In this document: positions 20,979 through 25,251 of the stretch, piece by piece | How the letters are laid out: every line of letters begins with the position of its first letter | Position numbering within the stretch: position 1 is the first letter of the stretch | Origin: a virus | Lineage: Duplodnaviria > Heunggongvirae > Uroviricota > Caudoviricetes | IMG/VR virus record: IMGVR_UViG_2563366975_000004 | Strand: one strand, 5' to 3' | Length of the DNA stretch: 35,452 bases | Notes under the pieces: generated by a model | What the model saw: only the letters and a program-made list of their open reading frames with translations | The model's database searches: none | What the model was told of the DNA's origin: nothing | Made by a program: the position numbers and the translations under genes

Positions 20979-21595
20979 ATGGCATTTAAACACTATGATG
21001 TTGTCAGGGCGGCGTCGCCGTCAGATCTTGCGGAAAAGCTGACACATAAACTGAAAGAGGGCTGGCAGCCGTTTGGTAGTCCGGTGGCCATAACCCCTTA
21101 TACCCTGATGCAGGCGATTGCAGCAGAAGGTGATGTGGTCGTCAGTGGTGCAACTGAGCCGGAGTGGTACTACGTCATCGTACTGGCCGGGCAATCCAAT
21201 GCCATGGCTTACGGTGAAGGGCTTCCGCTTCCGGATTCTTACGATGCGCCCCACCCACGCATTAAGCAACTGGCCCGTCGCAACACAGTGACTCCCGGTG
21301 GTAAAGCATGCGCATTTAACGACATCATTCCGGCAGACCACTGCCTGCATGATGTTCAGGATATGAGCGCACTGAATCATCCGAAGGCAGACCTGAGCAA
21401 AGGGCAGTACGGCTGTGTCGGCCAGGGCTTACATATTGCCAAAAAACTGCTTCCGTATATCCCGAATAACGCGGGGATCCTGCTGGTACCATGCTGTCGT
21501 GGTGGTTCGGCATTCACCCAGGGCGCGGAGGGGACATTCAGTGCGGACACGGGGGCCAGCCAGGATTCGGCACGCTGGGGTGTGGGTAAACCGTT
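20979..21595 (+). pseudogene. nanS: Sialate O-acetylesterase (NanS-p-like, SGNH hydrolase) N-terminal fragment, interrupted by IS
   Basis: SGNH block YYVIVLAGQSNAMAYGEG; reading frame continues after the IS (..WGVGKP | LYQDLIARTKAALQKNPKNVLLAVCWMQGEF..). Confidence 0.6.
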
Positions 21596-21660
21596 TATTA
21601 GACGTCAACTAGTTTTGCCGACTCGCGCCAACTATACTGGCCGCACCCTTCAGTGCGACA

Positions 21661-22416
21661 TCAAGTCGCGCTTGTTACTGCCTTCGCTGTCTTTTTCCTG
21701 TAGCTTTCACCTTTCAGTTCGAACATATATCCGTGATGGATCAGCCGGTCTGCCGCCGCCACCGCCATAGTCTCATCCACGAAGATGCTGCCCCACATGC
21801 TGAACGGATGGTTACTGGTTATCACCAGGCTCCCACGTTCATAGCGATGCGCTATTAACTCGAACAGTACTCCCGTTTCGGCGCTGTCGCGTTTGACATA
21901 GCCAAGATCATCCACCACTATCACCCGGTAGCGATCCAGTTTCAGTAGCAGCTCATTCAGTTTCAACTGCGCTCTGGCTTTACGTAGTTCCTGCAACAAC
22001 TCTCCTGCGCTGTAGAACCGGGCCCGGTAGCCCTGGCCTACTACGCCATCCACGATCGCTGCCGCCAGATGGCTTTTCCCCAACCCGCTGGCTCCGAACA
22101 GCAGAACGTTTTCTCCTGCATCAACCCAGTCTGTCGTTTCACAGAGTTGCCGGAACTGAGCTCCATTCAGTTCCGGCACCTGACTGAAGTCGTATTCGCT
22201 TAGCGTTTTGGCAACTGGCAACCGGGCCTCCTTTTTATAACGACGCAGTTTTTCACTCTCGCGCCACAGGAGTTCTTCATTGCATAGCGTCAGAAGATAG
22301 CGCGATGGTGTCCAGCCTTCTGCCAGTGCTCGTTTTTCCAGAGCGTGCCATTCAGCTCCAACTCGTGTCAGGCGTAGTTTACGCAGGCTGCGTTCAAGGT
22401 GATGGATATTGCTCAC
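21661..22416 (-). CDS. istB: IS21-family helper ATPase IstB (251 aa)
   Basis: Walker A LLFGASGLGKSH and Walker B VIVVDDLGY; start overlaps istA stop. Confidence 0.85.
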   Translation of the reverse strand: MSNIHHLERSLRKLRLTRVGAEWHALEKRALAEGWTPSRYLLTLCNEELLWRESEKLRRYKKEARLPVAKTLSEYDFSQVPELNGAQFRQLCETTDWVDAGENVLLFGASGLGKSHLAAAIVDGVVGQGYRARFYSAGELLQELRKARAQLKLNELLLKLDRYRVIVVDDLGYVKRDSAETGVLFELIAHRYERGSLVITSNHPFSMWGSIFVDETMAVAAADRLIHHGYMFELKGESYRKKTAKAVTSAT

Positions 22417-23912
22417 TGCGAACCTCCCTTGCCACGCAGTAGTTGCTCATAACTGCTCAGGTTATGCTGTTTCACATTGACTACCGGCAACGCCTTTTCC
22501 TTTATACCCAGGAAGCGCATCAGCCGGTGCAGATCCACGTTTCCCGGGGTATTCAGCATCTGCTCCATACCTTTTGCCACGACTGAGATATCGTCGTATC
22601 CTGCAGCCAGTTTCAGAGCATGTACCATCAGCCTGCCTGCCATGTCGGGTTCCAGATGATTACATAAGCGACGCCACAGCCTCCGCCATTCATCGTCTGG
22701 CAGGATGTCATTTCTCAGCGTTGCATGGCAGAACGCACCGGGCTTTTTTGCCAGACTGTCGATCACATGTCGGAAGTCGATACGACGGGCCCGCGTCTTC
22801 CCTTTTTCTGGTCTGACACGTGGGCAGCTCATGACCTCGCTGCTGCCAACGTAACAGCTCAGACGATCGTCCCATAACCGGACCCGTAACAGTTGACCTA
22901 CAAGCCGGGAAGGTACGCTGTAGACGACGTGCTTCACATTGATGGTACTGCTGCGGCTAACCCTCACAGTCAGCTCATCATAGTCAGCACTGCGACGAAG
23001 CGGCAGCGGTTTCAGATGAAGACGTTCTTCCTTGACCAGATCCTGATTGTTACGGTTGTGCCGCATAACCTGCTGAGTGATGAAGGCCTGATATTCTTCT
23101 ATGGTGCTGAAGTCGTTACTGCCCCGCAGTATCAGCGCCTGACAGATACGCCTTTTCAGATGTCCGTGGGCACTTTCAACCGAGCCATTTTCGTGGCCCC
23201 GACCGGCATTATTGTGTACGCCCTGCATTCCGTAGTGCTGACAGAGAGCAGCATAACGCTCAGTCAGCTCGCGGCGTCCATCTTCGCCCTGTTGTTTCCA
23301 TGCTGCCCTCAGGCTGTCCGTTTTATGTTCTACCGGCACTCCGCCCAGTTGTCCGAGGGCTTCCTGCAGACCTTCAGCCAGAGCAGAGAAGCTCTCACCA
23401 CCCAGCACAACCCGCATCCAGCTCCAGTGGCTCCATTCCAGACGGAAGTGATACAACTTATGCGCCAACAACTTACCGGCGATGGTGACAACTACACCTT
23501 TCAGTTCAGTAAAGTCCGACAGACCTCGCAGACCGGGCTGATGTCGCTGGCGGAACATGACCTCCTGCTCTGCACCATACTGTAGCTTCCATTCGCGGAC
23601 CCGCCGTTGCATTGTTCTTCGAAGGCTGTTGGGGTACTGGCCGGGATATTTATCCTGTAGCATCTCCAGCAGAGTTGTTGGTGTCAGAGCCGGCCTCTCT
23701 TTCAACAGAGGAACAAGCATGCTGTCCCACACAGCTTCCAGAGGATCTTTGCGTGTGCGCCAGTGCCGAACACTGTTTTTTGCCCACTCTCCTTTTTCGA
23801 TCCGACGACCAGAACGGACTGAGATACCAGCCTTCATGGCCGAGATATGCTGAGTTATACCTTTCTTACGCTGAGTCATATAGTAACTGACCTGAGAAGT
23901 ATTGAGCGTCAC
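22413..23912 (-). CDS. istA: IS21-family transposase IstA (499 aa)
   Basis: N-terminal HTH followed by DDE integrase-like core; immediately upstream of and overlapping istB. Confidence 0.85.
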   Translation of the reverse strand: MTLNTSQVSYYMTQRKKGITQHISAMKAGISVRSGRRIEKGEWAKNSVRHWRTRKDPLEAVWDSMLVPLLKERPALTPTTLLEMLQDKYPGQYPNSLRRTMQRRVREWKLQYGAEQEVMFRQRHQPGLRGLSDFTELKGVVVTIAGKLLAHKLYHFRLEWSHWSWMRVVLGGESFSALAEGLQEALGQLGGVPVEHKTDSLRAAWKQQGEDGRRELTERYAALCQHYGMQGVHNNAGRGHENGSVESAHGHLKRRICQALILRGSNDFSTIEEYQAFITQQVMRHNRNNQDLVKEERLHLKPLPLRRSADYDELTVRVSRSSTINVKHVVYSVPSRLVGQLLRVRLWDDRLSCYVGSSEVMSCPRVRPEKGKTRARRIDFRHVIDSLAKKPGAFCHATLRNDILPDDEWRRLWRRLCNHLEPDMAGRLMVHALKLAAGYDDISVVAKGMEQMLNTPGNVDLHRLMRFLGIKEKALPVVNVKQHNLSSYEQLLRGKGGSQ

Positions 23913-24004
23913 GCCATTTCCTGTTGGATCATGTAAATGACACTCAGGTTACAAAACCGGCCAGAATAATCGGCGCCAGGCGGACTGAGTTATTGTCGTC
24001 TCAT

Positions 24005-25251
24005 AACCGTTATATCAGGACCTGATCGCACGCACCAAAGCGGCATTACAGAAGAACCCGAAAAATGTGTTGCTGGCGGTGTGCTGGATGCAGGGCGAAT
24101 TTGACATGAGCGCTGCCACCTACGCACAGCAACCGGACCTGTTCACGGCCATGCTGAAGCAGTTCCGTACTGACCTTTCCGGATTTAACGCGCAGTGCCA
24201 TGGCGGCAGTGCTGCAGTTGTACCGTGGATTTGTGGCGACACGACGTATTACTGGAAAAACACATACGGCACACAGTATGACTCCGTCTACGGCGCGTAC
24301 AAAAACAGGGAGAGCGACAACGTTTTCTTTGTGCCGTTCATGACCGACGGTAACGGCAACAACACGCCCACCAACTTACCGGCAGAAGACCCGGATATTG
24401 CTGATGCAGGTTATTACGGCGCGCAATCCCGTAGTAATGGTAATTGGGTATCGTCAAATCGTCCGACACATTTCAGTTCATGGGCGCGCAGGGGCATTAT
24501 TTCGGATCGCCTGGCAACCGCTATTCTGAACGCAGTTGGTCGAACCAGCGCCTTCATCAGCGGTACCGCACCGGAGATTAAACCCTCGCCCGGCGGCGAC
24601 ACGCCATCGGGGCCGTCTGATGGTGACACATCCGTTCGTACAGTCTCCCTGCTGCCGACAGCCGGAGAGGCTGCTGCGCAGGGCTGGACCATCACCGGCG
24701 GCAGTGTTGCGCTGGAAGATGGTGTGTTTAAGGTTACCAAGCAGAGCAATAAAACCTGGTCCCTGATGCATCCGGTGGATGACGCAGTCTCCCTGCTGAC
24801 ACGGGGTGGCAGACTGAGCTGTAAGTTTCGACTGTCAGGCGCACTGACCAACAACCAGTTCGGTCTGGGAATTTATCTGTATACCGATGTAGCGTTACCT
24901 GACGTCGTGGCGATGACCGGGACTGGTAACCCGTTCCTGATGTCGTTCTTCACCCAGACCACAGACGGCAAACTGAATCTGATGCATCACAAGAAAGCCG
25001 GAAACACAAAGTTGGGCGAGTTCGGGAATTACAGTAACGACTGGCAGACGCTGGAGCTGGTGTTCACCGCCGGCAGTGCCACGGTTACTCCGAAACTGAA
25101 TGGAGTGGCTGGCCCGGCATTCCAGGTCATAAAAGACAGTCTGACACTGGGGCTGAATGCGCTGACGCTGACGGATATTACCAAAAATGCAGCGTATGGC
25201 GTCGATATCGGCAGCCTGGTGCTGGAGATAAATGCACCGGCATCATCATAA
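24005..25251 (+). pseudogene. nanS: Sialate O-acetylesterase (NanS-p-like) C-terminal fragment
   Basis: In-frame continuation of the 20979..21595 fragment after the IS; track ORF 24067..25251 is its internal-start reading. Confidence 0.6.

Follow-up and report, generated by a model that had tools for sequence, protein, structure and literature searches.

Recent insertion of ISEc10 into a nanS-p-type sialate O-acetylesterase gene of a lambdoid, non-Stx prophage

The window, by which we mean the whole 35,452-nucleotide stretch of viral DNA analysed here (record IMGVR_UViG_2563366975_000004), contains two pieces of an esterase-like gene on either side of an insertion sequence (IS), raising the question of whether these are the halves of a single gene broken by transposition and, if so, how recently and with what consequence. 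A sequence-only reading had proposed that an IS21-family element interrupts a NanS-p-like gene, and had named alignment to intact homologues as the comparison to make. When positions 21596-24011 are deleted in silico, the resulting open reading frame is identical at 1857/1857 nucleotides to the uninterrupted gene of each of six complete E. coli genomes, and the two fragments are thus exactly contiguous, with the insertion point lying between nucleotides 617 and 618 of the 1857-nt gene. Nucleotides 1-617 of the uninterrupted allele, in Ecol_316 as in five other genomes, are identical to the 5′ fragment; RefSeq gives the intact allele the same limits as the window gene has at 20979 and 25251; and the fragments are collinear with the allele of CH436, with chromosomal NanS (PDB 3PT5), and with L0105 of phage 933W. 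The match is far above chance for both components, at 2410/2410 for the element, ISEc10, and 1857/1857 for the excised gene, and we are highly confident that ISEc10 has recently transposed into this nanS-p-type gene for a sialate O-acetylesterase, carried by a lambdoid, non-Stx prophage, and has broken it (Table 1).

Table 1. Features of the interrupted esterase locus, in window coordinates
Feature	Coordinates	Strand	Description
5′ esterase fragment	20979..21595	+	codons 1-205 plus 2 nt; DUF1737 and first half of SASA, including GQSN (Ser73, predicted catalytic)
Target-site duplication, left copy	21590..21595		ACCGTT, 6 bp; single copy at the empty site
Complete ISEc10 (IS21 family)	21596..24005	-	2410 bp; 0 mismatches to copies in other strains
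Read-through tail from the IS	21596..21773	+	58 codons and a stop, joined to the truncated N-terminal esterase fragment
istB	21661..22416	-	AAA+ helper ATPase; 251 aa, GTG start; PF01695 and NF038214 matches
istA	22413..23912	-	IS21-family DDE transposase; 499 aa, GTG start; NF033546 match
Target-site duplication, right copy	24006..24011		ACCGTT, 6 bp; single copy at the empty site
3′ esterase fragment	24012..25251	+	nt 618-1857; second half of SASA (WMQGE 231-235; THFSS with His359, predicted catalytic) and DUF6645

At the junctions, WGVGKP is the last native stretch ahead of the IS, as had been noted from the sequence, and LYQDLIARTK... follows it. The inserted length is 2416 bp (3n+1), which is exactly 2410 + 6 bp, and the esterase fragments are consequently in different frames in window coordinates, such that the earlier statement that the gene resumes in frame is correct only for the sequence without the 2416 inserted bases. 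The accompanying statement that the frame stops at the IS boundary does not hold, as the N-terminal frame runs on within the element to a stop at 21771-21773.

The protein reconstructed from the two fragments (618 aa) matches PF08410 at residues 3-50, PF03629 at 66-262, and PF20350 at 468-578, and has the domain order of nanS-p-type proteins: DUF1737, SASA, and a DUF6645 lectin-like C-terminal domain. It aligns to chromosomal NanS (PDB 3PT5) with E = 9e-125, and its C-terminal domain to the NanS-p domain in PDB 6YP6 with E = 4e-30; identity is 53% end-to-end with 933W L0105 and ~87% with yjhS of Stx1a phages. The same three-domain architecture is found in NanS-p of the Stx phages (933W L0105, and phi24B vb_24B_21, the source of PDB 6YP6) and in NanS/YjhS, so the NanS-p-like assignment stands; unlike the Stx-phage forms, the window allele is interrupted, its uninterrupted form has 618 rather than 645 residues, and its C-terminal domain has diverged. 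Homology predicts 9-O-acetyl sialate esterase activity for the intact form, with Ser73 and His359 the predicted catalytic residues by motif and by alignment to NanS. The break separates the GQSN block, upstream, from the WMQGE and THFSS blocks, downstream; because the SASA catalytic domain is split in this way, neither fragment is expected to be an esterase, and the interrupted gene is almost certainly a dead, null allele.

The inserted element is ISEc10, with 0 mismatches to the copies in CFT073, Ecol_316, HSP60, CMZE120, and CH436, and 2410/2410 identity with copies at 7 of 11 loci in other strains and replicons; RefSeq labels identical copies as 'IS21-like element ISEc10 family'. Compared with ISEc10 in CFT073 and many other genomes, it has the same 2410 bp, the same istA and istB products, and the same ends, and differs in insertion site alone. 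Pfam matched the Mu-transposase C-terminal beta-barrel domain in IstA and did not report an rve/DDE domain at its default threshold; the IS21 assignment of IstA was settled by NCBIfam, with a score of 227 bits to NF033546 'IS21 family transposase' (model positions 2-293 of 294; cut-off for this IS21 equivalog, 160 bits). IstB scores 266.7 bits against NF038214 (cut-off, 200 bits) and 209 bits against PF01695. Candidate DDE residues of IstA are D133 (SDFT), D199 (KTDS), and E246 (GSVE), and IstB has a Walker A motif, GASGLGKS (108-115), and a Walker B motif, VVDD (167-170). The two genes were read from the sequence as intact with overlapping stop and start, and this is borne out: the istB GTG start and the istA TGA stop overlap by 4 bp (GTGA), IstA has the same length as RefSeq WP_000174402.1, and WP_000174402.1 and WP_000065240.1 are the counterparts of istA and istB by length and position. 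The two-gene istA-istB operon coding for a DDE transposase and an AAA+ helper is that of IS21 and IS5376 (PMC10122671, PMC11208146).

The empty site, GGTAAACCGTTATATC, has only one copy of ACCGTT, and the element ends are IRL 5′-TATGAGACG... at 24005 and IRR 5′-TATTAGACG... at 21596; these terminal inverted repeats agree at 34 of their first 48 positions. The best internal repeat falls at the same positions in both ends with a 23-nt offset (12/18 and 13/18), which is the register of the two direct repeats in IS5376 termini; a repeat this good is reached for each end alone by ~15-17% of shuffles. The sequence-only reading took aaccgtt at both junctions as the likely target-site duplication; that string is indeed present (21589-21595 and 24005-24011), but the A at 24005 is kept in all 11 ISEc10 copies compared (the window's included), in spite of their unrelated flanks, and belongs to the IS as its terminal base, as the empty site also indicates. 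The duplication is therefore 6 bp and not 7, and it is of 6 bp in nine of the 11 copies, 5 bp in one, and 4 bp in one. Target duplications of the IS21 family span 4-8 bp.

Both ISEc10 ends finish ...ATA-3′ and have no terminal 3′-CA, which is typical of the IS21 family and is not used to define it. The terminal TA travels with the element, being found in 11/11 copies and not at the empty site. Alternative ends at the inner CA/TG (21598 and 24003) were considered and rejected; their flanks form no direct repeat, and the TA pairs are missing from the empty site. Both ISEc10 and IS5376 make a short target duplication, mostly 6 bp for the former and 5 bp for the latter (PMC10122671); the ISEc10 termini are 3′-TA and not the signature 3′-CA of IS5376, and only in IRL is there a CA, 2 nt inward; ISEc10 may therefore differ in exactly how it is cleaved. 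By analogy with the IS21 family, the IstA DDE transposase and the IstB AAA+ ATPase would have cut the two strands of ACCGTT at points 6 bp apart, and gap repair would then have produced the 6-bp direct repeat; the complete ends, the repeat itself, and the exact empty site are observed directly. We also note a TTGACG hexamer 7 nt from the IRR end, with no -10 after it in the flank on reading of the sequence.

The host of the insertion is a lambdoid, non-Stx prophage with the gene order Q-like antiterminator, methylase, two tRNAs, iraM, esterase, holin, lysozyme, and Rz, so that the locus has the Q/tRNA region on one side and the genes for holin, lysozyme, and Rz on the other, in agreement with the earlier description of the esterase as prophage-encoded; a position between Q/tRNAs and holin S is shared with 933W. 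In Stx2a phages, nanS-p is hit by IS1203/IS629 (IS3 family) and ISEc8 (Pascal et al. 2023, PMC10462455), and the insertion described here is like those in that a lambdoid prophage has an IS within the nanS-p gene of its Q-to-S region. It is unlike them in that the IS is of the IS21 family, and the prophage lacks stx, with an iraM-like gene at the corresponding position.

A near-identical prophage is that of strain Ecol_316, to which the flanking prophage sequence has 0 mismatches over ~29 kb with the two IS positions different; the window and Ecol_316 prophages differ only in a 0.8-kb patch and in where the IS lies. In Ecol_316 the esterase site is empty and ISEc10 is in the portal gene instead, and in the sister prophage of CH436 it is in the lysozyme gene. 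A megablast search with a 120-bp junction probe found no junction-spanning match in 5,426 complete E. coli genomes, and the insertion is thus recent and private to one strain; metagenome contigs and species-representative contigs, scanned for exact 34-mers, likewise gave no such junction.

These sister insertions, together with the fact that the IS is part of the late transcript and precedes the lysis genes, could suggest that the insertion was selected and is not neutral, for example if polarity on the holin, lysozyme, and late genes damps lysis, or if loss of the esterase is advantageous. We consider this unlikely. A promoter and terminator scan of 20700-25700 gave, for the + strand of the IS, no signal stronger than expected from shuffled sequence, and so lends no support to an outward promoter or strong polarity; the lysis and head genes downstream are untouched, and are probably still expressed on induction, since Q-modified RNA polymerase would read through terminators. 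The allele is private to one sequence, and a genome usually has more than one nanS-p gene (median, 2 places), so that a single loss is probably buffered. A preference of ISEc10 for prophage genes is also unsupported: the best 25 matches looked phage-rich, but an even-step sample of 60 ISEc10 records is not, consisting mostly of one inherited DUF4942-gene site and non-phage sites. Slightly less probable again is a broader scenario in which ISEc10 is bursting in this lineage and repeatedly striking one prophage (the esterase, the Ecol_316 portal, and the CH436 lysozyme), the hits being favoured by selection for a tamer prophage or for altered sialic-acid foraging, and in which the 3′-TA termini could mean that the ends are processed differently from those of model IS21 elements.

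An old insertion, with the IS copy now an immobile, fixed relic, is very unlikely. The median ISEc10 copy number is 1 per carrying genome, as a relic might have, but both open reading frames and both ends are complete, the copy does not differ from those in CFT073, new ISEc10 insertions have arisen next to lpp in laboratory CFT073 mutants (PMC7482066), and the differing IS positions within otherwise mismatch-free prophage DNA point to very recent events. Least probable of all is an assembly artefact in which the assembler put a multicopy IS in the wrong place and the true esterase gene is uninterrupted: ISEc10 occupies up to 22 places per genome in some strains, and the junction is in no other genome, but a misjoin would not create a target duplication, and here the insert has exactly the length expected, with a perfect 6-bp duplication around complete ends as in 8 of 10 independent copies in other genomes.

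A recent ISEc10 transposition is an ordinary event, and published work already describes IS insertions in nanS-p as well as new transpositions of ISEc10; its overall significance is limited. For annotation, the locus is best described as one nanS-p pseudogene interrupted by ISEc10, and not as two esterase fragments or a novel gene. One usually redundant prophage sialate O-acetylesterase has been lost, which could slightly lower growth on mucin-derived Neu5,9Ac2. ISEc10 is a well-known, still-active E. coli element, and the insertion marks it as active in the lineage of the window; because the window copy is intact and has the same sequence as copies that are known to transpose, it should be able to move again, in keeping with the suggestion of the sequence-only reading that it may still be mobile. 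Finally, since the window and Ecol_316 prophages serve as mutual exact empty-site controls, the junction is a convenient strain-specific marker.

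A plus-strand ORF of the window starts at 20979 (MAFKHYDVV...) and reads through ...ARWGVGKP, and a second plus-strand ORF, with the upstream extension PLYQDLIARTKAALQKNPKNVLLAVCWMQGEF, ends at 25251. Joining 20979-21595 to 24012-25251 gives a 1857-nt ORF without internal stops. Six complete genomes (Ecol_316, EcPNK004, JSWP006, E01, MINF_7C, and LR025101) carry genes annotated as 'SASA family carbohydrate esterase' that match it end to end at 100% identity, and seven further genomes carry genes with 99.9% identity. A more distant allele in E. coli CH436 is ~88% identical (1629/1858 aligned columns) and runs uninterrupted across the junction position (GGTAAGCCGTTATATCAGGAT); the alignments of chromosomal NanS (PDB 3PT5) and of L0105, the NanS-p of Stx phage 933W, are likewise unbroken at ...RWG..KPLYQDL.... 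The two fragments are thus contiguous in intact homologues. The sequence-only reading had placed an IS21-family element within a NanS-p-like esterase gene; this observation is real, and its interpretation is correct apart from minor corrections. One concerns the proposal that the esterase stops at the IS boundary and resumes in frame: the N-terminal ORF reads 58 unrelated codons past WGVGKP to a stop at 21771-21773, and because the inserted DNA is 2410 + 6 = 2416 bp (3n+1), the two halves lie in different window frames and are in phase only once it is excised.

The rejoined protein has 618 residues and three domains, with residues 59-379 matching E. coli NanS/YjhS (3PT5; E = 9e-125) and residues 422-614 the solved C-terminal domain of phage NanS-p (6YP6; E = 4e-30). 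It has 53% identity end to end with L0105 and about 87% with 'yjhS' genes in Stx1a phages, and the interrupted gene is a member of a known family, for which Pascal et al. described the three-domain plan and the gene order Q-stx-nanS-p-S (PMC10462455).

A megablast search of 5,426 complete E. coli genomes identified hundreds of loci labelled 'IS21-like element ISEc10 family transposase / helper ATPase IstB', and eleven copies were retrieved together with their flanking DNA for comparison. The block common to all eleven, TATTAGACG...CGTCTCATA, corresponds to window 21596-24005 (2410 bp), and similarity among the copies ends exactly at the equivalents of these two positions. Seven of the eleven, including those of strain CFT073 and two Ecol_316 plasmids, have no mismatches to the window copy, and the other four differ from it at 1-2 positions; judged by its sequence, the inserted element is a known IS, the same as published copies. 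Its two minus-strand ORFs (499 and 251 aa) overlap by 4 bp (GTGA), in agreement with the overlapping istA/istB stop and start read previously. IstA passes the NCBIfam IS21 transposase equivalog (227 bits; cut-off, 160) and has candidate D/D/E residues within SDFT, KTDS, and GSVE; IstB passes the helper-ATPase equivalog (266.7 bits; cut-off, 200), scores 209 bits against Pfam IstB_IS21, and contains the Walker motifs GASGLGKS (A) and VVDD (B).

With the IS limits set by the eleven copies, ACCGTT directly abuts the element on both sides (21590-21595, left; 24006-24011, right). The 7-bp aaccgtt suggested earlier as the duplication is indeed present at both junctions, but the duplication is 6 bp; the right-side A (24005) is the last IS base, which happens to equal the A preceding the left repeat. 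Among the window copy and ten retrieved copies, the repeat is a perfect 6 bp in nine of 11, and 5 bp and 4 bp in one copy each. An imperfect 57-nt inverted repeat (21587-21643 and 23958-24014) flanks the minus-strand genes, and 34 of the first 48 positions match between the two ISEc10 ends. By hand alignment, an ~18-nt unit is present twice per end in a 23-nt register (12/18 and 13/18 matches), the spacing reported for repeats L1/L2 and R1/R2 in the IS21-family element IS5376 (PMC10122671), although ~15-17% of shuffles reach each end's repeat, which is not statistically compelling alone. The termini are 3'-TA (21596-21597 and 24004-24005), in contrast to the signature 3'-CA of IS5376, and this TA travels with the element. 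A CA lies 2 nt inside the left end only.

Window 979-35452 has 99.8-100% aligned identity to a prophage of Ecol_316. All 42 substitutions are confined to 1998-2785 (0.8 kb, in the exonuclease gene), which looks like a small recombination patch, and the other ~29 kb are identical. In the Ecol_316 prophage the esterase site is empty and ISEc10 lies in the portal gene in the opposite orientation (31106-33516 of that locus, L012); the matching portal site in the window (34495-34506) is empty, each prophage serving as the empty-site control for the other. A related CH436 prophage carries ISEc10 in its lysozyme gene (5992-8941 of locus L001) with a 6-bp duplication, CGCTGG, and an intact 617-aa esterase. 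These three insertions are independent and very recent hops. New ISEc10 insertions next to lpp are reported for CFT073 mutants selected in the laboratory (PMC7482066), and some ST131 strains have the element in the afa promoter (PMC8764528). Of the 5,426 genomes, 526 contain full-length ISEc10; among genomes with any match, the number of places per genome has a median of one and a maximum of 22. An apparent preference for prophage genes was an artefact of ranking in the first match list, and an even-step sample gave no support for it. The esterase-IS junction was found in 0 of the 5,426 genomes at >=80% coverage of a 120-bp probe, in agreement with the first megablast, and an exact scan of metagenome and species-representative contigs with junction 34-mers gave no match. 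Interruption of nanS-p in Stx2a phages by IS3-family elements and ISEc8 is already published (PMC10462455), whereas here the element is ISEc10, of the IS21 family, in a prophage without stx; only the insertion site is new.

The break follows codon 205, within the SASA domain, with GQSN (71-74) and CCRGG (172-176) upstream, and WMQGE (231-235) and THFSS (358-362) downstream. In SGNH/SASA hydrolases, the first block carries the nucleophile Ser and the last block the His; since the break separates these, neither fragment should be active. The phenotypic cost is probably buffered, since the median genome has nanS-type sequences at 2 places. Downstream, the window and the Ecol_316 sister prophage have identical lysis and head genes, and a simple scan of the IS plus strand gave no hits for terminators or promoters beyond chance expectation. 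A 12-pair hairpin and T-run at 25334-25372 (+), between the esterase stop and the holin start, form a terminator-like site in the late operon that is the prophage's own. Q-mediated antitermination, established in lambda, should override any IS polarity on the late transcript.

Features of the interrupted locus and its neighbours, in gene order, followed by esterase domains
Feature	Position	Strand	Remarks
Antiterminator			precedes DNA methylase
DNA methylase	18178-19227
tRNA	19277-19352		tRNA-Met (CAT) by ARAGORN; tRNA-Ile (ileZ type, reading AUA) in RefSeq and 933W equivalent
tRNA-Arg (TCG)	19360-19436
iraM-like anti-adapter gene	20383-20718	-	NF007393, 162 bits
Esterase (interrupted)	20979-25251	+
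istB	21661-22416	-	251 aa
istA	22413-23912	-	499 aa
Holin	25402-25617
YdfR-family protein (DUF1327)	25622-25966
Lysozyme	26310-26843
Rz	27402-27980
DUF1737	residues 3-50		rejoined protein
SASA	residues 66-262		rejoined protein; Pfam
DUF6645	residues 468-578		rejoined protein

The gene order of the window lacks stx, and the iraM-like gene sits where 933W has stxAB. The left boundary of the window coincides exactly with the stop codon of an integrase ORF of 376 aa (1-1131, -); the window therefore covers a single lambdoid prophage from int to the middle of the portal gene, with neither attachment site inside it. Its end falls within a tandem repeat in the annotated portal gene, in which a 162-bp (54-codon) unit is present in ~3.3 copies with 95% match (window 35318-35452; L012 34340-34872).
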